DNA from: an uncultured Bacilli bacterium
GTDB taxonomy: Bacteria > Bacillota_I > Bacilli_A > RF39 > UBA660
Direction: 5' to 3'
Length of the DNA: 64,000 nucleotides
NCBI GenBank assembly: GCA_947627925.1
Contig: CANQXW010000001.1
Location: 13,314 to 77,313 of the forward strand
Positions 25,523 to 63,832 of this stretch are shown piece by piece. A program made the translations under genes and the position numbers. Positions within the stretch are counted from its first letter, which is position 1, and each line of letters starts with the position of its first letter. The notes under the pieces are model-generated. The model was not told where the DNA came from. It saw only the letters and a list, made by a program, of their open reading frames with translations, and ran no database searches.

Positions 25523-25590
25523 AAATATAAATATAACATAATTTGAAAAAAGAAAAAAGAGGCAATTACCTCTTAATCCTTTCTCTCTCA

Positions 25591-25721
25591 AGTAATAATA
25601 TAAAAAGAAAAGAACCTAATTCATCATTTATACTTTAGGTTCATTCAAAAATTTTTCTACAACATCCAACGCAAGAATATTTGAATGTTCCTTTTTATTG
25701 TATTCAAGTTTCCTTGACATA
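25591..25721 (-). ncRNA. promoter-sRNA/leader-terminator module, copy 1 (5' of rlmD)
   Basis: -35 TTGAAT (rc of 25739-25744), a 17-bp spacer and -10 TATAAT (rc of 25716-25721). A conserved ~70-nt core GUCAAGGAAACUUGAAUACAAUAAAAAGGAACAUUCAAAUAUUC follows. The terminator is GAACCUAA…UUAGGUUC plus a U-run. Confidence 0.45.
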
Positions 25722-25749
25722 TTCATTATACTATAAAAGGTTTTCTAAT

Positions 25750-27711
25750 TCAAGATGTCTTTTTTTGTAACAGTTCTCTCTTACTAACCTCTTCTATTTC
25801 ATAAGAATAATCATTATCAGTAACTCTAACAAATTCTCCTAGTTCCATAGCTAAATATTCTTTTAAAAATTCATAATCATCAGGACTACTTAGCATCATT
25901 TTGCTAAAGGCACTTTGAATTTCTTGCCAAACACTTATTACTCTTTCATCAGTAGGATACATTTCTAAGAAATATTGTATTTTATCATACATATCTTTAT
26001 ATTTTATTAAAGTATGAACATCTCCTTTTAAATTTTCTTTAAAAGCAGTTTTTAAAAATCTTTGAATTTTATCACTAGAGAAATCAATACGTCTTAATTT
26101 AACAACACAATCAATAATCTCCTCTTCGGTTAAATAACGAATTGGAAACATTTGATCAAAATTATAACACTCATTTAATTCCATCCAAATCCGATTATAC
26201 TCTTTTTTACTAATAAGAGATTTTAACTCCATATTTTGTCTTTCTCTTATAATTGGTTCAGCTTTAGGGGCTTTTGGTTTTCTTAAATTTCTTTTGGTTA
26301 AAGTTGACTTTATTGATTGTAAATATGGTTTAGCAAGTCCTAAATTTTTTAAAGCCACAATTATAGCATCAATATCTTCTCTAGTTAATCTTTCTTTCTT
26401 AAAATAATGTTTATCAATAGTCATTAAATTGTCTTTAAAATTTGAAAAATTAATATCTTTTACATTTGAATTAATAGCTACATATTGATGGGGAGGTGTT
26501 AACATATCATAAGCATAGCGATTTAACATACTTTCGAAAAATAAACCGTCCTCAAAGACCGAATCAAATTGAATTTTTGGCTTATTATCAACAGAATCTG
26601 TGATAGCTTCGGCTTCTGGATCAAAATTCCATATTTCTATATCTCTTTTTAAGCACCAAAAAATAAAGTCAGTTATTTCAACTTTGGTAAAAGAAGATGC
26701 ACCCAATACCAAGTTTAATCCTTCAAAATTAATAATTAAAGTTTGGCTAAAATAGGCTCTCTCAGGATATCTTAAATAATTATAAATGGAAGCACCAGCA
26801 ATAATTTTTGATAAATTATCAAAATCATTTTTGGACATTGTTTCGCTAAAAGTATCTGTATAAGCAACTAATCTTTCTTTATTGGTTAAACGTCTACCTT
26901 GATTAACTTTTTTTAATAGTTGTTCATTGTCAATTAATCTGGAAATATTTATATAGTCAACTATTTTTCTTTCAAAAATTTGCGAAACTTTTTTTAAATT
27001 ATCATATAATTTGGCCAATAGACTTTCTTCGTAAGTTGGTTCTTGTTTTTTTCTATCTTCTTGTTCTTCTCCTAAATATATGGCAAAACATTCTACCATC
27101 TCTGAACTCAAACCTAAAGATTTTAAACTTTCTAAAAAAACATCTATATCTTCTTTTTCTAAGTAAGGATATTTATCAAAAAAGTGTTTTTTAATTTCAC
27201 TAAATATATCAATAGGATTGCCCGAACTTTGTGAAATTATCGTAATGGCTTTATCTAATTCTAATTGTACTTTTTGTTCTTCGGGGCTTAAAAGACTACT
27301 ATCCTTCATTAAAAAATCTGCTGATTTTCCATCTTGAATCAATTCTTCAATCTTAGCTTTTACTTCTTCTTCAAAAGGGTAATTAAGAATTTTTTCCCGA
27401 TCAATAAGAACATTATCTTTATCGAATCCAAAATTATAAACATCTATTCTTAACAAAAATAGAATAATTTGCATTTTTTCTTTTAAAGTTAAATTTCCAA
27501 AATCTAAATGAGAAACTATATTTTTAAAGTTAATTAAAATTTTATCGTCATCTAAAACATCACTTTTGCCATTTTTTAACATTCTTTGAACTCTTTCAAT
27601 AATTTCTTTATATCTAGGATAATTCTTTTTTCCTTCTTCTAAAATTAAATAATATTTTTCTATCGCTTGATCCATTCCTTCAAACATAAAATATTCCCCC
27701 TTAAAAAGCAA
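25750..27711 (-). CDS. hypothetical protein
   Basis: 653-aa ORF. No family recognised. Confidence 0.4.
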   Translation of the reverse strand: MLFKGEYFMFEGMDQAIEKYYLILEEGKKNYPRYKEIIERVQRMLKNGKSDVLDDDKILINFKNIVSHLDFGNLTLKEKMQIILFLLRIDVYNFGFDKDNVLIDREKILNYPFEEEVKAKIEELIQDGKSADFLMKDSSLLSPEEQKVQLELDKAITIISQSSGNPIDIFSEIKKHFFDKYPYLEKEDIDVFLESLKSLGLSSEMVECFAIYLGEEQEDRKKQEPTYEESLLAKLYDNLKKVSQIFERKIVDYINISRLIDNEQLLKKVNQGRRLTNKERLVAYTDTFSETMSKNDFDNLSKIIAGASIYNYLRYPERAYFSQTLIINFEGLNLVLGASSFTKVEITDFIFWCLKRDIEIWNFDPEAEAITDSVDNKPKIQFDSVFEDGLFFESMLNRYAYDMLTPPHQYVAINSNVKDINFSNFKDNLMTIDKHYFKKERLTREDIDAIIVALKNLGLAKPYLQSIKSTLTKRNLRKPKAPKAEPIIRERQNMELKSLISKKEYNRIWMELNECYNFDQMFPIRYLTEEEIIDCVVKLRRIDFSSDKIQRFLKTAFKENLKGDVHTLIKYKDMYDKIQYFLEMYPTDERVISVWQEIQSAFSKMMLSSPDDYEFLKEYLAMELGEFVRVTDNDYSYEIEEVSKRELLQKKTS

Positions 27712-27933
27712 AAATTATTATAGTTAATTTTTCTCTTCAAGTCAATAAATTCTTTGATCTTTTATGTATTCTGTAACTTTTATGTATTAAAAAATTAAAA
27801 AGTTTCTTAATGTCCGCATATTTTTCTTGACTTCAAAAACATTAGTTTGCTATACTTAATTTAGGAATATTCAAATAGTTGGGCGTTGCCTTCATCTTAG
27901 AAGTGAATAACTTTTAAGTTTGGAGGTGATATT

Positions 27934-28014
27934 GTGAATAAAAAAGACTTTATAATTTTATTTCTATTTATAATTATTTATTCACTAATTAGAATAATTT
28001 TTCAGCTTGTGTAA
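27934..28014 (+). CDS. small hydrophobic peptide (type I toxin-like), GTG start
   Basis: RBS GGAGGTGA at 27923-27930, then GTG…: (M)NKKDFIILFLFIIIYSLIRIIFQLV*, 26 aa. The stop lies in the terminator region of the convergent sRNA copy 2. Confidence 0.3.
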   Translation: MNKKDFIILFLFIIIYSLIRIIFQLV

Positions 28015-28137
28015 AAAAACAACGCCTAACTCAGCAATGAATTAGGCACACTCATCATAGATTAGGCAACACTCAACACGACAATATTTGAATGTTCCTT
28101 TTTATTGTATTCAAGTTTCCTTGACATATTCATTATA
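28011..28137 (-). ncRNA. promoter-sRNA-terminator module, copy 2
   Basis: -35 TTGAAT (rc of 28155-28160), 17-bp spacer, -10 TATAAT (rc of 28132-28137). The core matches copy 1. The terminator is GCCUAAUUCAUUGCUGAGUUAGGC plus a U-run. Confidence 0.45.
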
Positions 28138-28238
28138 CTATAAAAATTTCCTTAATTCAAGATGATCGCAAATTGCTATCAAACATGTATTAATTGGTTA
28201 ATTTTGCCAATAATAATTTTAAGTAAGGATGATATTGT

Positions 28239-29648
28239 ATGAATAAAATTGTGGAAAGAGTTAAAAATGAATTTACTAACACTCCTGATTTAAAAATAAA
28301 AGAAGTAAAAATTAATCCTTTTAAATCTGTATATGTTATTTTTATTGAAACTGTCTGTTCTTCTGATAAAGTAAATGATTATATCTTAAAAAATCTAACT
28401 TTAAAAAAAGATGTTGATATTGAAAGTTCTATTCCTGGACCAAATACGGTTCCTTTAGATAATTATGATCAAATTGAATTTTATTTAACTAATGGCTTTG
28501 CCATAGTTATTTATAATAAAGATATTATTGCCATTGAAGTAAGGGGCGATTTAAATCGGAGCATTACTCAATCTTTAAGAGAGCCTTCCTTACTAGGGCC
28601 AGAAGATTCTTTTAATGAAAATTACCAAACTAATATGGGACTTATTAAAAGAAGAATTAAAAGTCATACTTTAAAAACTGAAGAAATAGTAATGGGAAGA
28701 ATTACTAAAACCACTATTAGCATTAATTATATTGATACTATTGCTGATGAAAAAAATGTGCAAATTATTAAAGAAAAACTCCAAAGGATTGATGTGGATG
28801 GTGTTATTGATCAAGGAACAATCATTAACTATTTAGAAAGTGAAAATAAAACTGTTTTTCCCACGATTAAAAGAACCGAAAGACCGGATTTAGCTGTAAC
28901 CTCTCTTTTAGAAGGGAAAATTGTTATCATGATGGATACCTCTCCTTTTGCCATTATCTTACCTACTTTTTTAATTGATTTTATTAATCCGGTTAATGAT
29001 AATTATGTTAAAAGTATTAATGTGGGTTTTATTAAATTATTACGTTTTTTCTCTTTTATCATGTCGATGGTTACCCCAGGAGTTTATATTGCCATTATTA
29101 ATTATAATCAAGAAACTATTCCTTCAAGTTTGCTTATTAATTTTAGTACCCAAAGATCGGGTGTTCCCTTTCCCAGCATTGTGGAACTCATCATGCTTTT
29201 ATTTATTTGTGATGTGTTAAGAGAAAGTGACTTACGATTCCCTTCTAATTTTGGTTCCGCCATTTCTATTTTAGGAGCCTTAATCATTGGTGATGCGGCG
29301 GTTAATGCGGGGTTAGTTTCACCTATTGCTATCATTATTGCTTCTTTTACCTTTATCACTAGTTTAATTTTTACGGAGTTAGAAATTAATAACGCTTTAA
29401 GATATTACCGTTACTTATTTTTATTCTTCGCCGCCTTCTTTGGTTTATATGGTATCTTCCTTTGCGCTATTCTTCTTTTAATAAATTTAATTTCTTTAAA
29501 ATCTTTAAATGCGCCTTTCTTTGCTCCCATTGCTCCTTTTAATAAAGAATATTTCTTTAAAAGTGTTCTTAAAAGAAAAGATATTAAAAATACCAAACGG
29601 AGTAAATTAATTACTAATAAGAATTTAACGAGAGGAAAATTTTCATGA
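28239..29648 (+). CDS. gerAA: spore germination protein, GerA (A-subunit) family
   Basis: 469 aa with a GerA-family N-domain and a C-terminal 4-5 TM region. Operon with the C and B subunits. Confidence 0.85.
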   Translation: MNKIVERVKNEFTNTPDLKIKEVKINPFKSVYVIFIETVCSSDKVNDYILKNLTLKKDVDIESSIPGPNTVPLDNYDQIEFYLTNGFAIVIYNKDIIAIEVRGDLNRSITQSLREPSLLGPEDSFNENYQTNMGLIKRRIKSHTLKTEEIVMGRITKTTISINYIDTIADEKNVQIIKEKLQRIDVDGVIDQGTIINYLESENKTVFPTIKRTERPDLAVTSLLEGKIVIMMDTSPFAIILPTFLIDFINPVNDNYVKSINVGFIKLLRFFSFIMSMVTPGVYIAIINYNQETIPSSLLINFSTQRSGVPFPSIVELIMLLFICDVLRESDLRFPSNFGSAISILGALIIGDAAVNAGLVSPIAIIIASFTFITSLIFTELEINNALRYYRYLFLFFAAFFGLYGIFLCAILLLINLISLKSLNAPFFAPIAPFNKEYFFKSVLKRKDIKNTKRSKLITNKNLTRGKFS

Positions 29649-30724
29649 AAAAAATATTAATATTAATTCTATGTTCTCTATTTCTCGGAGGCTGTTATGA
29701 TAATATTGAGCTTAATAATTTAGCAATTGTAAGTGGCATTGGTATTGACTATGAAGATGATAACTTTATTCTAACTTATGAAGTTTTAAACGATACTAAA
29801 ACCGACGAAAATACGGCGATGCTCAGTTATACCGAAGAAGGAAAAGGCAAATCGATTGTCGAAGCTTTTACCAACACCAATTATAAAATTGGCAAGAAAC
29901 CTTATTTTGCTCATTTACGAGTTGTCTTATTAAGTGAAACAATAATTAAAGATCACTTAGATGAAATAAGTGACTACTTAATAAGAGACACCGATATTCG
30001 CGATGAGTTTATTAGTGTAGTTGTGAAAGATACCACCCCTAAAGAAGTACTTACCCATAATAGTAAAAATATTCCCGTAGTTAGTGATCTGATTATTAAT
30101 CTTTTAGATAATGAAAAATATAATAATAATCTTTCTGTTACCGATACTTTTCAACAAGTTTTAGCTAAATTTATTAGTCATAACCAAGATGCTGTTTTAA
30201 GCTCTCTTACCATAAACGAAAATGATGAGATAACTTTAAGCAATTTTTATCTGTTTAAAGGCTACTATTACCAAGATACTTTAACCGAAGAAGAATCTAG
30301 TTTTTATAATTTACTTACCAAAGATGTTTTTGGTTTAAAAGTAGAAAATAAATATGAAAAAGGTAATGTTGTTATTAATATAAGTCACTCTAAACCCGAA
30401 ATAGAGGTAACAAGTGATAAAATAAAAATAAATTTAAAATTAGATGGAAAAATCTTAGATAATAATGCCGATTTTGATTTAAAAAGTGAAAAGTCTTATC
30501 AAGAATTAAATAAAGATTTCTCTTTAATTATTAAAGATAAAGTTACTAGCTTTATTCAAAAATTACAAGCCAACAAATCCGATATTTTAGGCCTTCAAGA
30601 GATATACTTTAAAAAGTGGCGAAAAGAAAATCATAATCTATGGGAAACTGCAAACATTGAAGTTAAGATTGATTTAAAAATTAATACTAAAGGTTTTATA
30701 TTTGAGGTGGAAAATGAAAAATAA
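29645..30724 (+). CDS. gerAC: germinant receptor C-subunit lipoprotein (Ger(x)C family)
   Basis: The lipobox is LFLGGC. LAIVSGIGIDYED is typical of GerxC. Confidence 0.8.
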   Translation: MKKILILILCSLFLGGCYDNIELNNLAIVSGIGIDYEDDNFILTYEVLNDTKTDENTAMLSYTEEGKGKSIVEAFTNTNYKIGKKPYFAHLRVVLLSETIIKDHLDEISDYLIRDTDIRDEFISVVVKDTTPKEVLTHNSKNIPVVSDLIINLLDNEKYNNNLSVTDTFQQVLAKFISHNQDAVLSSLTINENDEITLSNFYLFKGYYYQDTLTEEESSFYNLLTKDVFGLKVENKYEKGNVVINISHSKPEIEVTSDKIKINLKLDGKILDNNADFDLKSEKSYQELNKDFSLIIKDKVTSFIQKLQANKSDILGLQEIYFKKWRKENHNLWETANIEVKIDLKINTKGFIFEVENEK

Positions 30725-31730
30725 ATTAACTTATTTTATTTCTAGTTCATCAATGTTTGGTATTGGCTTCTTTCTCCTTTTTAAAAATGCCGGCAAGGAT
30801 GCTTGGATTTCTCTTCTTTTAGGTACTCTTCTAGGAATTATGATTATGTATCTTTATAGTAAAATTAAAAAATATTTAAAAGATAATAATTTAAAAGAAA
30901 CTTTAAAAAATACTTTTATGGGAAAAGTTTATTTAGGAATATTTTTAATTTTTTATCTTTATTTAATAACCATTATTTTAATTTTACTACCAATGTTTGT
31001 TAATTCTTTCTACCTTTTATATACTCCTAAAATTATTGTCATTATTCCCTTCTTACTTTTAGCCGTTTATATAACTTATAAAGAAAAAAGAGTTTTAGAA
31101 ACTCTTAGCAATTTTCTTTTTACTATAAGTATTGCTGTCATAATTATTTATATAATTGCTCTTTTTAAATATATCGATTTTAATAATTTAAAACCTGTCT
31201 TTTCCGAAAGCACTTGGGGAATTATGAAAGCATCTTTAATCTATGCCTCTATTACAACTATTCCTAATATTATAACTATTAATTTTAATAATAATGATTT
31301 TAAATATGAACTTAAAGTATATTTAATTTCTAGTTTCATGCTCCTTCTAATTTTACTTTCAACCATTGTTTGTTTAGGAGAACCTTTAATTAAAATTTAT
31401 AGTTTCCCTGAATATGCTGTTTTAAAACAAATTAAAATATTAGATTTTATTGAAAATATTGAAAATTTATCGACCTTTATTTGGTACTTTGATATGTTTA
31501 TAACTCTTTCAGTTCTTACTACTAATGTTAAAGAAATACTTCCTAAAAAAAGAAATTTTATTTATTACCTACTCGCCATTTTTCTCACCATTATTTTAAG
31601 TATTTTTATCATTGGTAGTAACTACCGCTATATAATAACTGTTTTTTATACTTATCCTTTTATCTTATTTGGCTTTCTAGTTCTATTTATATTACTCTTA
31701 TTTATCCTAAAAAAAAGAAGAAAAGATTAA
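30702..31730 (+). CDS. gerAB: germinant receptor B-subunit (spore germination permease, APC superfamily)
   Basis: 342 aa, ~10 TM, with an N-terminal …GKDAWISLLLG motif. Confidence 0.8.
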   Translation: MRWKMKNKLTYFISSSSMFGIGFFLLFKNAGKDAWISLLLGTLLGIMIMYLYSKIKKYLKDNNLKETLKNTFMGKVYLGIFLIFYLYLITIILILLPMFVNSFYLLYTPKIIVIIPFLLLAVYITYKEKRVLETLSNFLFTISIAVIIIYIIALFKYIDFNNLKPVFSESTWGIMKASLIYASITTIPNIITINFNNNDFKYELKVYLISSFMLLLILLSTIVCLGEPLIKIYSFPEYAVLKQIKILDFIENIENLSTFIWYFDMFITLSVLTTNVKEILPKKRNFIYYLLAIFLTIILSIFIIGSNYRYIITVFYTYPFILFGFLVLFILLLFILKKRRKD

Positions 31731-31741
31731 CTTTTCTTTCT

Positions 31742-32098
31742 TTAAATCCATTTACTTATATATATCTTACGAGTAGTATATTCTTCATAATTAGTAAATA
31801 TTCTAATAATAATATCAACTAAAGATTTTAAAATATTATTATCTTTTCTTACTTGAACAGTCACAATTTCTTTTTGAAGAGTACTTCTAAATAAATAATC
31901 TTTAATATAATTAGCTAAAACATTATCTAATTCTTGAACTCTTTCAATATCTTCTCTATTATCTTCATCGATAGAAAAAATATAACTCTTATAAACTTTT
32001 ATCAATCTATCACTTATCATATCAGTTTCGTTAAAATCAAAATTGATAATTGTATAATAATTAGGACAATATTTTAAGATATCTTTGTTTCTATTCAT
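31742..32098 (-). CDS. hypothetical protein
   Basis: 118-aa ORF. Confidence 0.4.
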   Translation of the reverse strand: MNRNKDILKYCPNYYTIINFDFNETDMISDRLIKVYKSYIFSIDEDNREDIERVQELDNVLANYIKDYLFRSTLQKEIVTVQVRKDNNILKSLVDIIIRIFTNYEEYTTRKIYISKWI

Positions 32099-32177
32099 TT
32101 ACTACCACTCTCTATTTAATAAAATAATACTACATGTTTTTTACTGGGTCAAGATAATATAGATAATTTTTTAAAAT

Positions 32178-35100
32178 TTATTTCCAAGATGGCCCAACTT
32201 TATAATCGATATCCCGGTTACTAGTACTATCATACACCATTCCAAAATTAGAAGTATAATAACTTATTTCCTCCGTAGTTCTTACTTCCCAACCTGATTG
32301 GTTAATATTATCCGTTAACCAACTTTTGAAATAACCATTGCTATTATTTTTACGACTTTCTTCACCTGATGGCCTTTCAGCTCCAGCAATTATAATATTA
32401 CCATATCCATCTTTAATCATTTCATCAATGAAAGTACTATAACAATAAACATTTTCATAAGTTTTACCATTTTGTTTTAAATCATAACATTCCATAGTAT
32501 TATTTAAATAATTAGAACCTTTATTTTGCTCTTTAATCCAATTAATAGTTTGCGGATTCATTGTAACTTGCATAGCAAAATCTTCATTATCAGTTGGATG
32601 CTTAAAGTCAACATCGAAAATAGAATTGCCATTATCCATAATTTCTTTTTTGGTTACATAAGCTTTTAATTCAATTGCCGTGTTAATGGTGCCATCAGAA
32701 TACCAGTTATTACCTAATATCCGATCATTTGGATTGATGTCTTCACTTGTTACTTGGCGATAATCTAATTTTAATTCTGCTCCATCATATAAACAACTTT
32801 TACAATAGACTTTACAATGACCATTTGGACAGCATTTTGAGTAATAAATGCCATAGTTAACTTCTTTACCATTTGGATCATAATAGTGATCTATACCCTC
32901 TGTATCTTTTAAAACAACACAACTATTTTTAATATCAGGTGGACAATCTGGACAATAACAATCTGGATCATCCGGACAAGTAGCACTACAAATTCCATCT
33001 TTTTGTGGTGAACAACCATCACCTGGACAATCAGGATCATTTGGACAATCTGGGTCACAATAATCATCCGATTCTTCCTTACATTTATTACATTCATTAA
33101 CATTATAGGTACATCTATATATTCCCTCATCATGATACATATTATCAGTGTAATCCTCATAGACTAGCGCTGTATTTTCATTTCGACATGCTTCATTAGT
33201 TTGAAGAGTTGAAGACACTACGCTATCACTATCACCCCAAATTCGACCTAATTCATTAGAATTAAAGTACTCACCTAAATTTTCAAACCATAATAAGTAT
33301 TTTTTCGTTCCATTTTCAGTTCCTAAAGATACAGGCAAACCATTTTCAAGTGGTGTTCCATTTTTAACATCAGTTCCTACTTCGGCCGCTATAATTGTTC
33401 CCGTTGGATAAATCGTATAAAATTGGGTCGGTGTTATAAATTCAGCTGAGGCTTTCTTAGCTGTTTTTATATATCGAACATTAGATAAAGCATAAGAATA
33501 ATTACTACAACCATCCTCAGTACAAGCACATGCTGAACCAATTGTTACATCAGTACCTCTTGAAAGTGTTGTTTTCCATCCTCCCTCACCATAACATTCT
33601 TCATAATCATCAGAAACACAACTACGACCAGCAGGGCATCCCGTTCTTGTACAATAATAGGTTTCAACATCACTTAAGGTTTCATTAAATTTATCTAACT
33701 TATTATTAATAACATTATTACTATAATAATCTTCTTGATACCAAAAATGCATTTCTGGATCAAAATTATAGTCCATTTCCCAAGTACCAAATGGTGATGG
33801 ATTTATCGTTCCTGGAAAATTGCCACCAGAATAAGAACCAATTACTTTATTATAAAGTAATAAAGCACCATACATACCACCAGTACCTAATTTAGCCTCA
33901 AGACCAAAACCATTTGTACTATTACAATAATATCTAGCATCACCTTTAGTTATATCACCCTCCATATGACAATCAGTTACTTTAGCTTTTTCTCCAATTT
34001 CATTTATTGCTTGATCAAGTAGTGCTCCTGCCAACTCTTCATTACTAAGTGCTCGTCCATTTACATATGAAGCTTTGCATTTCGTAAAAAATCCAAAATC
34101 AAATCCAGAATAAACATGGCTAAATTGTTCAGAAAATGTATTGCAAGTCGATGCACCAGAGTCATATTCGAATTCTACCGTAAACACTGGCGCTACTTGA
34201 CGTTGTGGAATTTCATATCGGCAATTACTACGTTCTGTTTTCTTTTTAGGATTGCCTTCTTCATCAAATTCGCCTTCTATTGTTACTTCTGTTTCATCAC
34301 AAACACAAAAAGCTGGTTCAATATAACATTGATTTGGTGATGCTGGAATTATTTCTGGATCGCACGCTTTAACAGAATATCCTGGATCTTTAATGCAAGT
34401 TCTATCTGCGATACACTCAGCCATTTTTTTATACATACGATAGTCTTTATAAGCATTTCTGGTTAGAGCAGCTTGAGTTTCTACATCAGTCTTGGCAGCG
34501 GCATTACTCTTTATTTCTGATGTATAACATTGCTTAGTACCCTCTAAAGATGCACGCAAACGGAAATATCTTCCACTATCTACATTAATAGATCCAGGTA
34601 AAGTTACTTTATAATCTTCTTTACAATAAATACCACCACCAGAAACAAAATTATTATCACCCGCTTCAGAAGTTAAATTTTCATCTTTTCTAGTATGACC
34701 AGCATTATCAGTAGCAGAATTATTAGTTACACATTTTTTGATATTTAAATCTCTTTCCTCATCAGGTTTATCACATGAATCATCAACATCATATCCTTCT
34801 TTAATTTCGACAACATTATTATTTGTATCACATTGTTTACAAGTAACATCTGTGATATAAGACTTACATGTTGAACCATCAGAATTTAAAGAAGTACACA
34901 TTTTAAATTCTTTTGGATATTCAGATATATTAAAACTTGATGTATTATAATTAGCTAAAACATATAATCTTTGAGACACACCAATTCTACCTCCTGAACT
35001 TATTTCAAAAGCAGAAGTTCCTAAATCATTATCTCTATATTTTAAAATAATTTTATATTTAGAAGAATCACATTCTTCTTTAACTGGAGACGTGAATTCA

Positions 35101-36119: not shown

Positions 36120-36233
36120 ATAATATACTCCATACCCTATACAAATAAATTGTATCATAAAAAAGCCTTTATTTACATAAAAAACGATAAAAAAATAATA
36201 ATATTGCAAAAAAAATGAGTTTTTTTAAACTCA

Positions 36234-37142
36234 CTATCTATTAATATTATAAGATTCTCCAGATAAATCATTTAAATTGTAATCATTTAATACTGGTTTT
36301 TCAATATTTTCAGTATCTTTCTTTAATGTTGGTAGTTCAATATCATCATCTTTTTTAGGAGTAGGCATTTCCACTTCAGGCGTTTCCTTCTTCTCTTCTG
36401 GAGTATAAACTGAACTAAATACTTCTTTTGGTTTAGCTACAGGTTCAACTGGAGTATCCGCTTGACCCACAATATCAGCAAAATTAAATGTCGGAACTTC
36501 AATTTGAGGTTCTTCATTAATAACAGGTTCTTGTCTTTCTGGAGCAATTGGCTCTACTGAAGTTACAGGTTCTAAATCAACATTACTAAAACTAAAAGGT
36601 TTTTCCGCTGTTTTTTCTAAAACTGGTTGAACTGGTTCTTGTAATGATGAGCTTGCAAATGGATTAATATATTCATTGGTCGAATTACTTAAATTATCTA
36701 TAGAATTATTTACCTCTAATGGCTCAGTAGGAACAGTATTTGGTAAAACAGGATCAACAACTGGAACTTCATTAGGTATATTAACTGAATCTATAGTAGG
36801 AACTATTACTGTATTATTTTCTAAATTAGGTTCTAAAGTAGAGTTTTCAGGCACATTAGGCATAGGTTGATTTAAAGAATTTTCCATTACTGGAGGAACT
36901 CCTACTTCTAAATTATTAGGCACGCTTGTTTCGGCAAAAGCATTAGCGCTACCGATATCATCAGGACTTATTTGTTGCAATTTTTTCGTAGCCTCTATCT
37001 CTCTATTCTTTTGATCTTTTTTGCCAAAAACCAGAATAATAATAAATAATAACACCAAAACAGCAATGGAAATCATCAAATAAGTTCCAAAATATTCATA
37101 GTTATATAATTTGTTTAAAAATTCATCCATTATAACCTGCAC
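36234..37142 (-). CDS. membrane-anchored Pro/Val-rich hypothetical protein
   Basis: One TM (LMISIAVLVLLFIIILVF) followed by a low-complexity P/V/E-rich region. Confidence 0.45.
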   Translation of the reverse strand: MQVIMDEFLNKLYNYEYFGTYLMISIAVLVLLFIIILVFGKKDQKNREIEATKKLQQISPDDIGSANAFAETSVPNNLEVGVPPVMENSLNQPMPNVPENSTLEPNLENNTVIVPTIDSVNIPNEVPVVDPVLPNTVPTEPLEVNNSIDNLSNSTNEYINPFASSSLQEPVQPVLEKTAEKPFSFSNVDLEPVTSVEPIAPERQEPVINEEPQIEVPTFNFADIVGQADTPVEPVAKPKEVFSSVYTPEEKKETPEVEMPTPKKDDDIELPTLKKDTENIEKPVLNDYNLNDLSGESYNINR

Positions 37143-37207
37143 CTCTTTATTCTTACTATATTAGATTATCACAAAAAACAAGATATTGCAATATTTTAAA
37201 ACATCTT

Positions 37208-37450
37208 TTAAAACATCTTATCAATATTTTTTGGTACATCTCCCCCAATTACTTTCGAAATAATTTTATCACTTTGCTCTTTACTAACCTTTTTACCCGT
37301 CATTCTACTTAAAGTATCAATAACTTCTCTTAAAGTTTTTTCATCTTTCATATTTCCATTTTGTAGTTTTTGGGCTAATCCCACAATCGTATTTTTATCA
37401 ACTTTAGTTTTCTTTTCGACTTTATTAAAAAAAGAATCATTTAAATTCAT
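37208..37450 (-). CDS. spoVIF: stage VI sporulation protein F-like
   Basis: 80 aa. MNLNDSFFNKVEKKTKVDKNTIVGLAQKLQ…NIDKMF resembles SpoVIF (MDNSFFKNIEKKTGV…). Confidence 0.45.
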   Translation of the reverse strand: MNLNDSFFNKVEKKTKVDKNTIVGLAQKLQNGNMKDEKTLREVIDTLSRMTGKKVSKEQSDKIISKVIGGDVPKNIDKMF

Positions 37451-37498
37451 ACTTCACCTTCTAATAAATTATATGATTAAACAATTCTTTTGTGCTAA

Positions 37499-38764
37499 TT
37501 ACTCATCTTTTTTAATTAAATCAATTATTATCTTAGCTTTTTTACTCCAATCATTTTCTTTAGCTTCTTTTTGTAATAATTTGTGATATTTACTATCATC
37601 TTTTAATTTATAAGCTTCTTCTAATTTTTTTAAAAAATCATTATGATCCTTGCCAATTAAGACAGATTCATATTTATGACATTCTAATAAATCTGTTGTT
37701 ACAATGGGTTTTTCCATAGCCATATATTCAAATATTTTTACGGGACTTGTGGATTTAGTAATATCATTAAGCAAAAAAGGAATCATTAAAATATCACATT
37801 TAATCGCGTAATATTTTAAAACTTGATAATCTTTAGAACCTAAAAAATACACATTTTTAACTTCATCCATTTTATTTAAATCATATGATTCATCATATTT
37901 TAAGCCAAAGAAAATGATATTATATTTATTAGTTTTAGCAATCTTTTTAATTAAATCATAATCAAACCATTTAGCTAAAGCTCCATAATAACAAAGGTTA
38001 ATTTTGCCATTATTGATGATGTCTAAATATTCTTTTTCTAATTCATAATCTTTCCATTTTTGGAAAAATTCATAATCTACTCCATTAGTGGAATATCCTA
38101 AATTTTTATTACCTCTTCTTTTTTCAATATCTTTTTTGAGTTCCTCGGCCGTGACAATGATATAAACATCTTTATTAGAAATAACATAAGCAAATTTCTC
38201 TAAAATATTTTTAGGTATTTCTTTAGTTCCAGCTAAATCAGCACTTAAATGATCAACATATTCATAGATTAATTTAAATCCTTTACTTAAATAATCTTCA
38301 ATATTAGCTACCGTTAACTTCCAATCAGTACAATAAAGTTGGATATATTTAGGTTTATTTATTTTAGTTAATTCTTTCATTAATATTCGATTAAGTAAAA
38401 TATTATTAAAATTAAATAAATATAAATTTTCTTGTTTTTTACTAATAGTTTTAACTTTATCAGTCATGGTAGTTACTTCATAAAATATTAAAGAATTATT
38501 TTTAACTAAGTTATTAGCAATATGTTGGGGTCTTTGAAATAAAGGAACATTATAACCAAAGCTACTCCGCCATAAAATTAAGCGTTCATACTTTCCATTT
38601 AATATCTCTCTAATTATTTTATGATATCTATAAGGATTTATAAAAACTATTAAACTAACTTTATCTAAATAATTAGCCACAAAATAGCGATAGCATTTTT
38701 TAATAAAACCCCTAAAACCATACTTTTTATAAACATTCACTAACTTGGTTATTTTATCTTTCAT
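37499..38764 (-). CDS. glycosyltransferase family 1 (GT4-like)
   Basis: C-terminal SPVKIFEYMAMEKPIVTTDL matches the GT4 'E..K..EYmA.G.PvI' motif. Confidence 0.55.
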   Translation of the reverse strand: MKDKITKLVNVYKKYGFRGFIKKCYRYFVANYLDKVSLIVFINPYRYHKIIREILNGKYERLILWRSSFGYNVPLFQRPQHIANNLVKNNSLIFYEVTTMTDKVKTISKKQENLYLFNFNNILLNRILMKELTKINKPKYIQLYCTDWKLTVANIEDYLSKGFKLIYEYVDHLSADLAGTKEIPKNILEKFAYVISNKDVYIIVTAEELKKDIEKRRGNKNLGYSTNGVDYEFFQKWKDYELEKEYLDIINNGKINLCYYGALAKWFDYDLIKKIAKTNKYNIIFFGLKYDESYDLNKMDEVKNVYFLGSKDYQVLKYYAIKCDILMIPFLLNDITKSTSPVKIFEYMAMEKPIVTTDLLECHKYESVLIGKDHNDFLKKLEEAYKLKDDSKYHKLLQKEAKENDWSKKAKIIIDLIKKDE

Positions 38765-38842
38765 ATTGATCTCCTCTATTTATAATAGCATCTCCTCTCA
38801 TACTTTTCAAATATTTCTTATTAATTTAAAAAAGATTTAATA

Positions 38843-39952
38843 TTACTTAAATCTCTCAATAATGGCATTAACTATTTTTTCGCTTGCAGTTCCATCCCCA
38901 TAAGGGTTAGATGCTTTGCTCATTTTTTCATAAGATGCTTTATTAGTTAATAACTCTTTGGCTTCTTTATAAATTGTTTCAGTATTAGTCCCGACTAATT
39001 TTAAAGTACCAGCTGTAATACCTTCGGGTCTTTCGGTAGTATCTCTTAAAACCAAAACAGGTTTTCCTAAAGATGGGGCTTCTTCTTGTAAGCCACCGGA
39101 ATCAGTAAGAACTAGATAAGCTTTATTTTGAAAATTGTGCATTTCCGTTACTTCTAAAGGTTCAATTAGACGGATTCGATCACAATCTTTAAAAACTTCA
39201 TTAGCTACATTCCGAACTCGAGGATTTAGATGAATAGGATAAATTATTTTTATATCGGGCACTTCTTCGATTAATTTTCTAATACCTTCAAATATCCTTT
39301 TCATTGGTTCACCTAAATTTTCCCGTCGATGACAAGTCAGTAAAACCATTCTTTCATCATCTTTTATCCAATCTAGTTCGGGATGATGAAAATTTTTAGT
39401 TACGGTAGTTTTTAAAGCATCTATAACTGTATTTCCCGTAACATATATATTACTTTCTTGAATATTTTCTTTTAACAAATTCTTTTTGCTAACATTAGTG
39501 GGAGCAAAAAGCATATCGCTTAAGCGGTCAATCATTTGGCGATTCATTTCTTCAGGATAAGGACTATATTTATCATTAGTTCTTAAGCCAGCCTCCACAT
39601 GACCAATAGAAATTTCATTATAATAAGCCGCAAGAGCCCCGGCAAAAGCAGTGGTAGTATCACCATGAACTAAAACTAAGTCTGGTTTTACTTCTTTAAA
39701 TACTTTTTCCAATCCTTCTAATGAACGAATTGTAATATCGCTTAAAGTTTGTCCAGCTTGCATAATATTTAAATCATAATCTGGTTTTATTTTAAAAGTT
39801 TTTAAAACTTGATCTAACATCTCCCGATGTTGAGCAGTTACACAAACCACACTTTCAATTTCCGCCCTTTTTTCTAATTCCTTAACTAAAGGAGCCATTT
39901 TAATGGCTTCTGGTCGAGTACCAAAGATACTCATTACTTTTATTTTTTTCAC
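38843..39952 (-). CDS. wecB: UDP-N-acetylglucosamine 2-epimerase (non-hydrolysing)
   Basis: MSIFGTRPEAIKMAPLV…HVEAGLRT…. Confidence 0.9.
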   Translation of the reverse strand: MKKIKVMSIFGTRPEAIKMAPLVKELEKRAEIESVVCVTAQHREMLDQVLKTFKIKPDYDLNIMQAGQTLSDITIRSLEGLEKVFKEVKPDLVLVHGDTTTAFAGALAAYYNEISIGHVEAGLRTNDKYSPYPEEMNRQMIDRLSDMLFAPTNVSKKNLLKENIQESNIYVTGNTVIDALKTTVTKNFHHPELDWIKDDERMVLLTCHRRENLGEPMKRIFEGIRKLIEEVPDIKIIYPIHLNPRVRNVANEVFKDCDRIRLIEPLEVTEMHNFQNKAYLVLTDSGGLQEEAPSLGKPVLVLRDTTERPEGITAGTLKLVGTNTETIYKEAKELLTNKASYEKMSKASNPYGDGTASEKIVNAIIERFK

Positions 39953-39984
39953 TCTATCACCTTAAAAATAACACTAATAAAATT

Positions 39985-40824
39985 TTATTTATTATCTTTT
40001 AATTTTTCTAATTCTTTAATACTTAATTTAGTATATTGAGCTATTTTTTCTAAAGGAACATTATCGTTAATCATCGAAATAGCGGTATTTCTGATAGTAT
40101 CTTTAGCCCCATCTTGATAAGCATTCTTCTTAATTATTCGCTCCATCAAAGCATTCTCTTCTTTTGGTGTCATTAAATTTGTTATGGTTCCATCTTCATT
40201 AAATCTTAACATCTTCTCTTCCACCTCTCTTACTTTTCTATCCTTCTTCGCTAAGGCCTTTATCTCTTCTCTATTTGATCCGAGCATTGTTAGATAGATG
40301 TGTCTCTTGTCTCCTCTTATGTTTTTATCATACCACTTATCTTTATATCCCGCAATATTCACATTTATGATTTTAAAATTTTCTACTAATACTTTTCCTT
40401 CTTTATTCCGAAGTAAGTATTCTTCTTTTAATGGTTTATTATTCCCTTCATTAAAATTTAAATTTATTTGAATTATCTCTTTTACTTTGATATATTTATC
40501 TCCTTTTTCTATAGTCTCTGTATATAAAGTAGAATAATAATTTAAATTCCTCTCTTTAATATTTTTATCATAATTAATATTAAGTTCGATATTTATAAGG
40601 ATACCTTCTGTTGTCTCCGCAATAATATCTAATCTTTTTCCTTTGATCTTTTTATTCTTAATTTTTAATTCACTATTTAGATATCTTTTAACTTTGACTT
40701 CTCTTTCTAAAATATCGGATAAGATATTATTCATAATTGTATGATCACTATCATCAATGATAATTCTTTTAAAAACAGCATCATATTTTAAATCATAAAA
40801 TTTCTTGCTTTTCAAAATTGGCAT
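39985..40824 (-). CDS. Rpn/YhgA-like PD-(D/E)XK nuclease family putative transposase
   Basis: N-terminal …YDAVFKRIIIDD…RLDIIAETTEGILINIELN pattern. Confidence 0.45.
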   Translation of the reverse strand: MPILKSKKFYDLKYDAVFKRIIIDDSDHTIMNNILSDILEREVKVKRYLNSELKIKNKKIKGKRLDIIAETTEGILINIELNINYDKNIKERNLNYYSTLYTETIEKGDKYIKVKEIIQINLNFNEGNNKPLKEEYLLRNKEGKVLVENFKIINVNIAGYKDKWYDKNIRGDKRHIYLTMLGSNREEIKALAKKDRKVREVEEKMLRFNEDGTITNLMTPKEENALMERIIKKNAYQDGAKDTIRNTAISMINDNVPLEKIAQYTKLSIKELEKLKDNK

Positions 40825-40946
40825 ATAGTAACCTCTCTTTCGAGGTCTCTATTTTACCGATATTTTTTCTTATTGCAACACTTTCGACAAACGTTGTCAA
40901 AACTTCTATTTTTTCGCCAATTTACGACAAAAAAATAGTTAAAAAA

Positions 40947-42188
40947 CTATTTTAATCTATTTACAGCCATCATTACAGCTAACTTACCATAAGAATAAGT
41001 AAGACCACCTTGTTGATAACAAATAAAAGGTTTTCTTAAAGGGCCATCACAGGATATTTCAATTGATGAGCCTTGAACAAAGGAACCGGAAGCCATAATA
41101 ATTTCATCATCATAACCAGGCATATCAGTAGGGACCGGCAAAGCGTTAGCGTCAATGGCGGACCCCATTTGAATACCTTCACAATATTTAATTAAATCCT
41201 CCCGATTACCAAATATAATGTTTTGAACAATGTCTACCCGATCGTCATTATATTTTGGCTCCACATTATAACCTAACTTTTCTAAAACTTTACTCGTTAA
41301 AATGGCTACTTTTAAACTACTAGCTACCGCCATCGGAGCATGATAAAGTCCCATTAAAATTTCTTTATTAATTCCTAAAGTAGGGCCAACTTCCATACCT
41401 TCTCCGGGAACTGTTAATCTTTCAGCACATAAATTAACTAAATCTTTACGTCCTACAATATAAGCACCATTGGGAGCAATACCTCCCCCTAAATTTTTGA
41501 TTAAAGAACCGACCATGATATCCGCACCAACTTCAACTGGAGTCCTATCTTCAACAAATTCACAATAGCAATTGTCAACCATTATAATAACTTCGGGATC
41601 TATTTCTTTGATAATCTTTATTACTTTTGCTAAAGAGGAGATACTTAAACTTTTTCTTTCGGAATAACCTTTACTTCTTTGAATAGCAATAACTTTAATT
41701 TTTTCACTTCTTAAAACTTGGGCAATTTTTTCATAGTCAAAATCATTATCGACTAAATCTATTTGTTCATAATTAATACCGAAAGATTTTAAAGAACTAG
41801 GGTTTTCTTTGATACCTATTACTTCATGTAAAGTGTCATATGGAAGACCCGAAATACTTAAAAGAGTATCATTAGGTCTTAATAACCCAAAAAGACAAAC
41901 GGTTAAAGCATGGGTTCCCGAAATAAATTGTCCTCTTACTAAAGAAGATTCTCCACCTAAAATTTCAGCAAAAACTTCTTCAATTTTTTCTCTTCCTAAA
42001 TCATTATAACCATACCCCGTCGAGGCATTAAAACAAGCTTCACTTACTCCGGCGTTTTGAAAAGCCTTAAGGACTTTACCACTATTAACAAATTCTTGCT
42101 CATCAATTATTCGAAAAATATCTTTTAATTCTTGTTCTGATTCATTAAATAAACTTACTATTTCTTCTTTAAATTTCATCTTTACCAC
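40947..42188 (-). CDS. YnbB-type PLP-dependent enzyme (aluminium-resistance protein / Met gamma-lyase family)
   Basis: 413 aa. The pattern around …VIAIQRSKGYSERKS…MVDNCYCEF… fits the YnbB family. Confidence 0.7.
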   Translation of the reverse strand: MVKMKFKEEIVSLFNESEQELKDIFRIIDEQEFVNSGKVLKAFQNAGVSEACFNASTGYGYNDLGREKIEEVFAEILGGESSLVRGQFISGTHALTVCLFGLLRPNDTLLSISGLPYDTLHEVIGIKENPSSLKSFGINYEQIDLVDNDFDYEKIAQVLRSEKIKVIAIQRSKGYSERKSLSISSLAKVIKIIKEIDPEVIIMVDNCYCEFVEDRTPVEVGADIMVGSLIKNLGGGIAPNGAYIVGRKDLVNLCAERLTVPGEGMEVGPTLGINKEILMGLYHAPMAVASSLKVAILTSKVLEKLGYNVEPKYNDDRVDIVQNIIFGNREDLIKYCEGIQMGSAIDANALPVPTDMPGYDDEIIMASGSFVQGSSIEISCDGPLRKPFICYQQGGLTYSYGKLAVMMAVNRLK

Positions 42189-42864
42189 TCATTCTAATTA
42201 CTTCGCCACTACGAATATCATCATCAATCATAATTTCTAATATTTTTAAAGCCACTTCTTCTTTTTTTAAGAGATGGTCTTGCCCCACTCTTTCCATTTC
42301 CTTCTTTAAATATTCGGGATCCATATCTAAAACACTATTCGTATCTACCCAATTAGGAGCTAAAGCACATATTTTCAAATTAGGTAGTCTTAAAGCTAAA
42401 TTTTTGGTTAAATTTTCTACTCCGGCTTTACTTGCGGCATAATCCATTGAAATAGGACTAAAAGTATCAGTTGCATCCGTTGATGAAATATTAATTATGA
42501 TGCCTTTTTCCATATTTAAAGAAGCATATTTACAAACCAAAAAAGTACCCACTAAATTAACCTCTAAAACTTTCATAAACTCACTCTTAGTTTTAGTTTC
42601 TAAATCATTATCTATAACCAAAGCAGCACAATTGACGACCACATCTATTTTTTCATGTTTAGAAATTACACTCGCAAATAAATCTTGAATCTCATCTTCT
42701 TTAGTTAAATCACATTTATATGTATCATATAATTCCTCTATTTTATGATTATTATAAGTTCCCACAACAGTTGCTCCATATTCATGCAAAATATTTGCTA
42801 AAGTATGACCAATACCACTGCTGACACCAATAATTAAAACAACATAACCCGCTAAATCCATCAC
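42169..42864 (-). CDS. SDR family oxidoreductase
   Basis: Gly-rich IIGVSSGIGHTLA and the catalytic Y..ASK. Confidence 0.8.
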   Translation of the reverse strand: MMDLAGYVVLIIGVSSGIGHTLANILHEYGATVVGTYNNHKIEELYDTYKCDLTKEDEIQDLFASVISKHEKIDVVVNCAALVIDNDLETKTKSEFMKVLEVNLVGTFLVCKYASLNMEKGIIINISSTDATDTFSPISMDYAASKAGVENLTKNLALRLPNLKICALAPNWVDTNSVLDMDPEYLKKEMERVGQDHLLKKEEVALKILEIMIDDDIRSGEVIRMSGKDEI

Positions 42865-42892
42865 GTCACCTCAAAACATTACTATTATATAA

Positions 42893-43393
42893 TTATTTTA
42901 TTATTGTTGCAATGATATCTCCCGTAAATATTAAACTTAAAATAGTCAAAACAAATATAATTAATTTATTATTTACTTTTGCGATTATTTTTTCAATTAA
43001 AGGATTTAGAAGATAGGTAAAAATTAAACCACCAATACCAAAACAAAAGGCACTTAAAAGACAAACATAACCATTTATATTTAGAAAATATCCTTTATAA
43101 TTCCAAAGACGTATGCCTCCTAGTTTTAAAAGAAGAAAACCACTTAGGCCTTCTAATAAGCCGGTAAGAAAAAATGATAAAAGAAAGATTACTAAAGGTT
43201 TTTTCTTATACTTATTGATTATTAATAAAAGTAAGGCTCCAATGCCATAAATTGGTAACCACGGCCCTTTTAAAAAGCCATGACTATAAAAATTACCTTT
43301 ATAAAAATAGTTTAAAATTAATTCATAAAAATAACCTAATATACTACATAAATAAAAAGTTACGCCAATTTTTATTCCCATATCTTTTTTCAT
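42893..43393 (-). CDS. polytopic membrane protein
   Basis: 166 aa, 4-5 TM. Confidence 0.4.
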   Translation of the reverse strand: MKKDMGIKIGVTFYLCSILGYFYELILNYFYKGNFYSHGFLKGPWLPIYGIGALLLLIINKYKKKPLVIFLLSFFLTGLLEGLSGFLLLKLGGIRLWNYKGYFLNINGYVCLLSAFCFGIGGLIFTYLLNPLIEKIIAKVNNKLIIFVLTILSLIFTGDIIATIIK

Positions 43394-43512
43394 AATTATC
43401 CCGTTAATATTATGGTTTTAAATAATAACTTTACTATTCCATAAATTGGTTTAATATTTTTACATAGATAAAAAACATTAAACCATAATAAAAATAGAAA
43501 GGAAAGAAAAAT

Positions 43513-43740
43513 ATGAATGAAAACTATAAAAAAGCGCCCAATATTTTAACTGATAAAGATTTAGCTTATCTGAAAGATATTTTTGGGTGGAATCATACAG
43601 CATATAAAAATGAAATGGAAGCTTTAAATTATATTGAAGATAAAAGTGTTAAAGATATGATTAATGAAGCGACAAAACTTTTTAAAGAAAATATGAATCT
43701 AGTTTTAGATTTAGTAAAGGATGGGGAAAATGGAAAATAA
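43513..43740 (+). CDS. small hypothetical protein co-transcribed with cotF-like gene
   Basis: 75-aa ORF overlapping the next gene by 20 nt. Confidence 0.4.
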   Translation: MNENYKKAPNILTDKDLAYLKDIFGWNHTAYKNEMEALNYIEDKSVKDMINEATKLFKENMNLVLDLVKDGENGK

Positions 43741-44062
43741 AAAAATTGCTAACCCTAAAACTCCCGTGCCGACGGGATTAGGTTTAAATGATCAAGATTA
43801 TATGACTACGCTTTTAAGTACTTTAAAAGCTATGGTTAAAGACATGACTGTAGCTTTAACCGAAGCCTCTAATAGCGAACTTTATAAAAAATTTAAAGAT
43901 ATGTTTGAAAACTTAATAAAATTACAAAGAGCTTCTTATGAATTAATGTTTAAATTAGGATGGTATACTTTAGAAGAAGCTAAAGATACTAAAGTTAATA
44001 CTTTAGGTAGTGATTTACAAACACAACTAGATAATTTAAATAGTGAAAAGGGAAAATCGTGA
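43721..44062 (+). CDS. cotF: spore coat protein F (Coat_F domain)
   Basis: …NPKTPVPTGLGLNDQDYMTTLLS…ASYELMFKLGWYTLEEA matches the CotF pattern. Confidence 0.7.
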   Translation: MGKMENKKIANPKTPVPTGLGLNDQDYMTTLLSTLKAMVKDMTVALTEASNSELYKKFKDMFENLIKLQRASYELMFKLGWYTLEEAKDTKVNTLGSDLQTQLDNLNSEKGKS

Positions 44063-44094
44063 ATTAAAAAAGCATTTTATAGTATAATGAATAT

Positions 44095-44205
44095 GTCAAG
44101 GAAACTTGAATACAATAAAAAAGGAACATTCAAATATTCTCGTGTTGAGTGGTGCCTAATCTAAATTGAGTTAGCCTAATTCATTGCGGAGTTAGGCGTT
44201 TTTTC
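44095..44205 (+). ncRNA. promoter-sRNA-terminator module, copy 3
   Basis: -10 TATAAT at 44083-44088, the core as in copies 1 and 2, and the terminator GCCUAAUUCAUUGCGGAGUUAGGC (44174-44197) plus a U-run. Confidence 0.45.
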
Positions 44206-44290
44206 TTTTGATAGTAGCCTTTTAAAATACTAAATTGTCAATTTAGAAAACACACTTGCATATTGACAACCAATATGCGTGTGAAATATT

Positions 44291-44578
44291 TTATCTATTA
44301 TGTCTAGGTTCCTCTTCAATATTATTTTGACTTTTAATAATTAATGATTCATAAAAAGCTCTATTAACAGCTTCAGCTTGTTCCATTGTAGCCCATTCTC
44401 TACCATCAACTGATTTAAAAGATATACCCTTACCAAAATCTGTTGTTGGATCAACATCAGGCACCAAACCTTTACCATAATCCGTTCTTGGAGCAATTTT
44501 AGGTTCATATCCTTTTCCGTAATCAGTTAAACTATCAATAGGTTTTTTGTCGTTATAAAAAAGATTATTATTATCCAT
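44291..44578 (-). CDS. hypothetical protein with three TD(Y/F)GKG repeats
   Basis: 95-aa ORF. Confidence 0.4.
   Translation of the reverse strand: MDNNNLFYNDKKPIDSLTDYGKGYEPKIAPRTDYGKGLVPDVDPTTDFGKGISFKSVDGREWATMEQAEAVNRAFYESLIIKSQNNIEEEPRHNR

Positions 44579-63756: not shown

Positions 63757-63832
<76 letters not shown>

Follow-up and report, generated by a model that had tools for sequence, protein, structure and literature searches.

The question raised by this locus is what three small, repeated RNA units are for. They lie in a 64,000-nt stretch of a contig from an uncultured Bacilli bacterium (GenBank assembly GCA_947627925.1, contig CANQXW010000001.1, positions 13,314 to 77,313; hereafter the window), each with its own promoter and terminator, and a preliminary description of the DNA had left their function unknown. 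We estimate a probability of about four in five that these small RNAs (sRNAs) are the antitoxins of a new type I family of toxin-antitoxin (TA) systems, present in the window as one intact module and two orphans. They are arranged as type I antitoxin RNAs are, and the one constant neighbor among the copies of the family is a small hydrophobic open reading frame (ORF) on the opposite strand, the stop codon of which overlaps the U-tract of the sRNA.

The three units are real and far beyond chance expectation. The window contains exactly three instances of a 30-mer that covers both the -10 box and the start of the RNA, at 25701-25730 (-), 28108-28137 (-), and 44083-44112 (+), where shuffled sequences lead one to expect none. 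The sRNAs themselves, each ∼115 nt in length, occupy 25602-25720 (-; copy 1), 28012-28127 (-; copy 2), and 44093-44209 (+; copy 3), and their first 29 nt are identical. Copies 1 and 2 match exactly over their first 55 nt and over a 43-nt core, and in both comparisons copy 3 differs by one extra A. The near-consensus sigma-A promoters of the preliminary description are also borne out: A promoter scan calls TTGAAT-17-TATAAT ahead of copy 1 (25725-25753, -) and of copy 2 (28132-28160, -; kept across the family described below), while the GTGAAT-18-TATAAT of copy 3 (44059-44088, +) was read by eye, its -35 box being too weak for the scan. The same holds for the intrinsic terminators. A terminator scan finds a hairpin and T-run at the end of copies 2 and 3, and the 3′ end of copy 1, GAACCTAA...TTAGGTTC followed by a T-run, was read from the sequence.

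The preliminary description had recognized no known RNA class and had proposed an Rfam scan, a search for further copies, and a covariance model. Rfam, searched over the whole window at gathering thresholds, gives no match for the three sRNA copies, and only a T-box and tRNAs turned up. There is likewise no match over 25400-28400 at E ≤ 10, and no sRNA match at E ≤ 1 in six related loci that hold 13 copies. To collect relatives, the pattern TCAAGGAAACTTGAATN{8,22}ATTCAA was scanned over one genome per GTDB species, which gave 35 loci: 31 real and four chance. Nearly all of the real loci belong to metagenome-assembled genomes (MAGs) of uncultured gut "Bacilli" from rabbits, goats, and mice; seven of these loci are supplied by a single MAG, Lapin-019 bin1, which carries at least 12 module copies. 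When the loci were searched with a covariance model (R1) built from 38 sRNA copies, the 31 real ones yielded 49 copies and the four chance ones none, which with the window makes 52 copies. In the window the model returns exactly three copies (114.5 bits for copy 2, 112.6 for copy 3, and 92.2 for copy 1), the next match scoring 18.7. Modules stand in tandem, up to three in a row, in loci L004, L015, L017, and L030, and L029 has three modules ∼2 kb apart; in L004 (6727-7760), L017 (2424-3468), L029 (2864-7311), and L030 (3665-4622), mixed toxin and H2 types (see below) stand behind near-identical sRNA 5′ parts. A metagenome scan added only four loci with good matches. Plasmid and phage collections yielded no module match, and the one pattern match on a viral contig reached only 20.8 bits and is probably due to chance.

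Across the family the sRNA consists of a hairpin (H1), an A-rich linker, a second hairpin (H2), a variable linker, and the terminator. Covariation supports both H1, UCAAG-GAAA-CUUGA, and H2, (GG)AACAUUCAA...UUGAGUGUU(GCC). In the fitted alignment 97.9% of cells are paired and 16 out of 24 pairs show compensatory changes, a result equaled by none of 500 shuffles and approached by no slid register of the alignment; RNAalifold returns the same helices from a MAFFT alignment. In copy 2 (fold, -30.6 kcal/mol; z = -3.3), the minus strand carries H1 (28111-28124), the A-rich linker (28099-28110), H2 (28065-28098), and the terminator stem (28022-28049), with a U-tract extending to 28012. H1 and the A-rich linker make up the head of the sRNA (nt 1-33, AUGUCAAGGAAACUUGAAUAaAAUAAAAAAGG; 28095-28127 [-], 25688-25720 [-], and 44093-44125 [+] in the window), which is near-invariant in the 52 copies of all types. 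The conserved helices are not those drawn in the preliminary description, UUGAAU...AUUCAA and GAAUA...UAUUC, since covariation supports H1, H2, and the terminator instead. The first of the two overlaps H1 and is incompatible with the type D copies, where the partner reads ACUUAA.

Two further candidate roles for the sRNA were rejected. A 23-aa ORF at 28062-28133, considered as an sRNA-encoded peptide, has its start within the -10 box, and changes in the length of an A-run break its frame in copy 3 and in many relatives. A CsrA-type decoy with GGA loops was dropped, the second GGA lying outside any loop and the resemblance finding no further support.

Downstream of the sRNA terminators, the related loci fall into conserved sequence classes, and in each class the opposite strand reads GGAGG(T/C)GAT, then a start codon, then a strongly hydrophobic ORF of 24-30 codons that ends at the terminator. 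Among the 52 sRNAs, 39 have such an ORF with a Shine-Dalgarno sequence (SD), its stop falling between -11 and +12 nt from the sRNA 3′ end, and the SD is at matching spacing in all 39 ORFs called. In the window the ORF is found at copy 2. It encodes 26 aa (MNKKDFIILFLFIIIYSLIRIIFQLV; 27934-28014, +), begins with GTG, and is preceded by the SD GGAGGTGA (27922-27929, +) and by a TG-extended promoter, TTGACT-18-TATACT (27827-27856, +), which was called by the promoter scan and is kept in related loci. Its stop codon and the 3′ end of the sRNA have 3 nt in common. By profile hidden Markov model (HMM), it is the sole such ORF in the window (score, 44.9; E = 2.5 × 10^-12). The locus thus holds two features that are looked for in a type I TA system: a hydrophobic ORF of under 60 aa served by an SD and a promoter of its own, and a cis-encoded sRNA with extended complementarity to the putative toxin mRNA, the extent of this overlap hinging on the predicted toxin 3′ end.

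The association of the two genes is asymmetric. The HMM was run over all 4843 small-ORF candidates in ∼300 kb of fetched loci and identified 41 toxin-like ORFs, every one of them convergent and tail-to-tail with an sRNA (for the L038 ORF, the partner was supplied by the metagenome scan). No toxin-like ORF without an sRNA was found among these 41. At least eight of the 52 sRNAs have no ORF, and five more stand at contig ends. A toxin that is never alone and an antitoxin that sometimes is are the asymmetry expected of a toxin-antitoxin pair.

The peptides are 23-30 aa long, mostly 26, 27, or 30, with a charged N-terminus (MNKKD, MSKKD, or MPKR) followed by ∼20 hydrophobic residues; the best 19-residue hydropathy window ranges from 2.0 to 4.0. 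The ratio of nonsynonymous to synonymous variation (pN/pS) is 0.27, 0.32, and 0.38 in the 26-residue, 27-residue, and 30-residue groups, respectively, and codon position 2 is the least variable. The ORF is under purifying selection. The sRNA head is conserved more strongly still than the peptide. Searches of Pfam, NCBIfam, PADLOC, and PHROGs with the peptides give no family at a meaningful E-value and no PDB chain is matched, although very short queries limit the sensitivity of these searches. The same family-library and PDB searches found no homology of the toxin peptide to TxpA, BsrG, BsrE, or YonT, and in the literature we found nothing on the peptide motifs or on type I TA systems in Erysipelotrichaceae.

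The toxin mRNA begins, by prediction, with a near copy of the central hairpin of the sRNA, H2. In 38 of 39 modules a sequence resembling H2, which we call H2′, begins 6-8 nt past the toxin -10 box (GGAA(C/U)AUU(U/C)AA...UUG(G/A)GUG..GCC). H2 and H2′ stand ∼175-200 nt apart on opposite strands and therefore form an inverted repeat in the DNA. The likeness to H2 makes H2′ complementary to H2's antisense (antisense-H2), which lies on the toxin strand downstream from the ORF. In the window H2′ (GGAATATTCAAATAGTTGGGCGTTGCC; 27864-27890, +) is complementary to 28065-28098 of the plus strand, and the duplex of the two has a predicted energy of -30.4 kcal/mol.

H2′ changes together with the H2 of the same module through five types, A to E. 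In types A and B, H2 reads ...GUGUUGCC and the toxin 5′ end ...GUG(A)UUGCC; in type C the pair is CAUUCAG..CUGAAUGYCUACC and UAUUCAG..CUGAGUGUCUACC; in type D, AAUACUUAAC..GUUGAGUACU and AAUACUUAAC.GUUGAGURCU; and in type E, ...GUGAAUGUCGCCUC and ...GUGAGUGUCGUCCUC. H2′ pairs with the antisense of the H2 in its own module at a mean duplex energy of -31.0 kcal/mol, against -20.8 with that of another type and -9.0 with shuffled sequence. The differences between H2 and H2′ are themselves biased: 73 are C-to-U or A-to-G changes, which keep the pairing as G-U, compared with 11 opposite transitions and 18 transversions, and the bias points the same way in every H2 type. As a hairpin on its own, H2′ is poor (-3.3 kcal/mol, vs. 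-10.1 for the sRNA H2). The toxin RNA of the window, taken as 27863-28108 (246 nt), folds at -70.3 kcal/mol (z = -7.9) with its first 29 nt paired with nt 205-237. Over 38 modules, the unpaired probability of the ten 5′ nucleotides is 0.01 in the full-length RNA, 0.48 if the part complementary to the sRNA is blocked, and 0.54 if it is removed.

This arrangement depends on where the toxin transcript ends. The terminator hairpin is shared by both strands, and its U-tract is on the sRNA strand (7.6 T per 10 nt); on the toxin strand there are only 3.8 per 12. The A content per 12 nt is 3.8 before the sRNA terminator and 8.6 before H2, so that a toxin-strand U-tract follows only antisense-H2. That U-tract is the complement of the conserved A-rich linker, the A-tract of the sRNA head being a U-tract on the toxin strand. 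Since the shared hairpin has no toxin-strand U-tract, we infer that transcription of the toxin gene continues across the complement of the sRNA body and stops at antisense-H2. The predicted toxin 3′ untranslated region (UTR; 28015-28107, +) would then hold the antisense of the terminator, antisense-H2 (28065-28098), and the U-tract (28099-28107).

The gene layout, its conservation, the coding signature, the RNA covariation, and the sequence relation of the toxin 5′ end, the toxin 3′ segment, and the sRNA are shown by the analysis. The antisense relation is read from the sequence; we infer transcription, transcript ends, toxicity, decay, and a mechanism of competition for a clamp, as follows. 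One promoter would drive the ∼115-nt sRNA, from 28127 to 28012 (-), and the other an mRNA of ∼240 nt from ∼27864 (+) that encodes a 26-residue, presumably single-helix, membrane peptide. The stop of the toxin ORF lies in the complement of the sRNA U-tract, so the sRNA would be antisense to the toxin mRNA 3′ UTR. The first 27 nt of the toxin mRNA are predicted to pair with its 3′ segment in a 5′-3′ clamped form in which the SD is buried. The sRNA, perfectly complementary to that 3′ segment, could displace the mRNA 5′ end and form a duplex of ∼90 bp with the toxin 3′ UTR. Cleavage of the duplex by an RNase III-type enzyme, with the mRNA 5′ end exposed to decay, would leave the toxin unmade. In a fuller reading, the antitoxin would mimic the 5′ end of the toxin mRNA, outcompete the 5′-3′ clamp, and hand both the freed 5′ end and the duplex to RNases, with the near-invariant head serving as a universal handle for exchangeable, type-specific toxin cassettes. 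We offer this fuller reading tentatively and put it well short of even odds. If true, its logic of mimicry is one that PMC3834814, PMC8594479, PMC7472228, PMC9841398, and PMC5416894 do not describe for any type I family.

Several observations weigh against our reading. The peptide, a putative toxin, matches no known toxin family. Promoters and start sites are predicted, and so, most importantly, is the 3′ end of the toxin mRNA; as a hairpin, antisense-H2 is weak (-5.3 kcal/mol) and fails a simple terminator scan. The covariation of H2 with H2′ and the wobble counts are not phylogenetically independent. The near-invariance of the first 33 nt of the sRNA is accounted for only in part. Finally, the accessibility of the SD barely shifts when the 3′ segment is blocked (0.12 vs. 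0.14), so that folding does not predict an effect of the sRNA on translation. The SD is mostly buried in all three states of the RNA (0.12-0.15). Within the model, this suggests that the sRNA acts mainly on mRNA integrity and not directly on ribosome access.

A convergent, 3′-overlapping layout is the build of Gram-positive type I TA systems (PMC8594479), 13 antitoxin RNA families of type I systems being in Rfam (PMC8594479). By analogy, the closest in working appear to be the 3′-overlap families of Bacillus subtilis (bsrG/SR4, txpA/RatA, bsrE/SR5, and yonT/SR6), SR4/bsrG among them. Here, too, a toxin mRNA and an sRNA of ∼100 nt with its own promoter and terminator converge and overlap at their 3′ ends, the toxin is small and hydrophobic, and the SD is partly sequestered; SR4 both promotes decay and alters SD pairing (PMC3834814, PMC8594479). 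Unlike these families, with which there is no sequence or profile similarity in peptide or RNA, the overlap consists almost entirely of 3′ UTR, with only 2-12 nt extending into the ORF, the toxins are shorter (23-30 aa), and the sRNA copies the mRNA 5′ end, a feature not described in PMC3834814, PMC8594479, or PMC7472228. For the predicted clamp of H2′ and antisense-H2, the closest analogues would be the long-distance 5′-3′ locks of hok/Sok (the tac/fbi fold-back) and of aapA1/IsoA1 in Helicobacter pylori, which keep the full-length toxin mRNA closed and inert (PMC9841398, PMC5416894). In those systems, however, the target of the antisense RNA is the 5′ part of the mRNA, with which it pairs only once 3′ processing has opened the fold, whereas here it is encoded opposite the 3′ partner of the clamp. 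Their hosts are Gram-negative and their sequences unrelated.

The par system (Fst/RNA I-RNA II) of Enterococcus faecalis pAD1 and its relatives is the source of the strongest alternative, in which this would be a type I TA system of another working. Convergent promoters, a common terminator hairpin, and a toxin RNA of ∼230 nt are shared with par, as are intramolecular helices that sequester the extreme 5′ end and SD of the toxin RNA (PMC7472228). Both RNAs might then stop at the shared, bidirectional hairpin and touch first through their terminator loops, and the likeness of H2 and H2′ would serve some other contact, such as strand exchange at the toxin 5′ end, and not a clamp. Contacts between terminator loops are documented for par and SR4/bsrG (PMC7472228, PMC3834814), and H2 and H2′ have arms that, by construction, can pair with each other. 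We nevertheless consider this working unlikely. The shared hairpin, in contrast to that of par, is without a toxin-strand U-tract, as noted above, and strand exchange between the two hairpins gains no base pairs over the hairpins kept separate. In par, direct repeats (DRa and DRb) provide a second complementarity over the start region, whereas the repeat here is inverted and leaves the two RNAs alike; the best duplexes that the 5′ part of the sRNA forms with toxin leader and ORF do not surpass those of shuffles (mean z = +0.65), and their sites are inconsistent. The Fst signature (PXXXG, a conserved W, and a charged C-terminal tail) is also absent: An alignment of 29 distinct peptides contains no PXXXG and no conserved W, and most types end in hydrophobic residues; the signature sought for Fst/Ldr peptides in general comprised a TM helix, a P/D/S/TXXXG motif, the conserved W, and a charged C-terminus.

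That the ORF encodes a harmless small membrane protein under an ordinary antisense sRNA regulator, with no TA pair involved, would sit well with a putative toxin that matches no known toxin family. We judge this quite improbable, given the presence of the type I TA hallmarks set out in PMC8594479 and PMC7472228: a single-helix peptide of 24-30 aa with a charged N-terminus, a buried SD, many copies per genome (at least 12 in the MAG mentioned above), tandem arrays, a rapid turnover of cassettes, and sRNAs that occur as orphans where ORFs do not.

The preliminary description had favored an attenuator or riboswitch, with copy 1 as the 5′ leader of rlmD, and a structured RNA followed by a terminator does invite the idea of a cis-acting leader for a downstream gene on the same strand. 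It had also pointed to a duplicated 5′ arm of the terminator, UGCCUAAU. This arm is present in copies 2 and 3 as described, yet it is restricted to B-type copies, other types having a different linker, and the linker that bears the supposed alternative arm is the least conserved part of the sRNA. No conserved antiterminator or other alternative pairing emerges from the covariation. The same-strand downstream genes of the 52 copies are heterogeneous from locus to locus and usually at least 300-500 nt away, or else convergent. At copy 1 a further terminator-like hairpin (25557-25574) stands between the sRNA and rlmD, which speaks against a leader of that gene. The gap of ∼300 nt reported between copy 2 and a gene for a 653-aa protein exists, but it holds the convergent toxin ORF and its promoter. 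A cis-acting role is, in our judgment, very improbable. Equally improbable is a miniature inverted-repeat mobile element with H2 and H2′ as its termini and the ORF and RNA structure as incidental, since, although a DNA inverted repeat of ∼27 bp does flank ∼175 bp and the unit is multicopy, intergenic, and sometimes beside tRNA genes, the repeats are internal (the conserved unit runs ∼80 nt past one, over the sRNA promoter, H1, and linker, and ∼45 nt past the other, over the toxin promoter), their differences lean 73 to 11 toward changes by which RNA pairing on one strand is kept, purifying selection acts on the ORF, and the orthologous cotF site, described next, keeps the sRNA head while the cassette changes.

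In the TA reading, comparison with intact loci indicates that copies 1 and 3 have lost their toxin genes and are left as orphan antitoxins. When copy 1 is aligned with the intact module of L025 (and with L005), the likeness ends ∼15 nt past the terminator and the sequences then diverge; an ORF search and the profile HMM find no toxin-like ORF left at copy 1. Copy 3 follows cotF, as the preliminary description had noted, and so do the sRNAs of L025, with a type A toxin, and L032, with a type B toxin. Where these two loci hold the toxin gene, the window has ∼700 bp of unrelated DNA after copy 3. The mixture of types within loci and the variation at the cotF-flanked site (A in L025, B in L032, and none in the window) point to a fast exchange of cassettes. 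The two orphans differ in what they might still do. Compared with copy 2 across the segment that is antisense to the toxin 3′ UTR, copy 3 shows 87% identity and copy 1 only 67%; the predicted duplex with the copy-2 toxin 3′ UTR has an energy of -167.8 kcal/mol for the cognate sRNA, -120.5 for copy 3, and -64.9 for copy 1. On these duplex predictions, copy 3 could add to the antitoxin dosage as a backup of copy 2, and copy 1 probably cannot.

We regard the modules as a new family of a known kind, type I TA, with a variant regulatory design. Such systems are hard to find, as both partners are tiny and evolve fast, and cultured model organisms are the source of nearly all families known so far. 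This one is abundant in uncultured, spore-forming gut Bacilli and has no match in RNA or protein libraries. The five co-varying types provide a natural series of compensatory mutations for the relation among mRNA 5′ end, 3′ UTR, and antitoxin, and they make it testable how Gram-positive 3′-overlapping antitoxins control an mRNA whose start site stays untouched. For the annotation of the window, the TA reading would explain three "mystery" sRNAs, add an unannotated 26-aa gene, and flag two putative orphan antitoxins.

The surroundings of the modules show some further features. Beyond copy 3, at 44242-44278 (+), there is a conserved flank element, TTTAGAAAACACACTTGCATATTGACAACCAATATGC, with the palindrome GCATATTG..CAATATGC. 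On the minus strand it resembles a terminator behind a 95-aa ORF (44291-44578). The motif also stands beside the TA modules of L012, L019, and L027, and a similar sequence occurs in L018 and L033; the element may insulate the cassette as a terminator that moves along with it. In several loci, tRNA genes are found just upstream of the sRNA promoter or near the module (L005, 7168-7241; L033, 871-944; and L019, 4441-4607), which hints at a preferred site of insertion or retention beside tRNA genes.

Next to copies 1 and 2, two gene models deserve comment. The mechanically called rlmD ORF (24320-25591, -) begins with a TTG at 25591, a start called too early, and the true start is likely the ATG near 25519 (ATGAATGTAGAAATT...). 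The 653-aa ORF (25750-27711, -) lacks a Pfam domain, and the gene-position index contains no exact match to it; a homolog of it, a 643-aa ORF, follows the B-type module of L016 as well. Elsewhere in the window, a full-length T-box leader, unrelated to the sRNA modules, lies at 17078-17286 (-) and scores 121.9 bits (gathering score, 93), and two adjacent tRNA genes at 63760-63832 and 63844-63929 (-) match the Rfam tRNA model with 65.3 and 61.9 bits, respectively.

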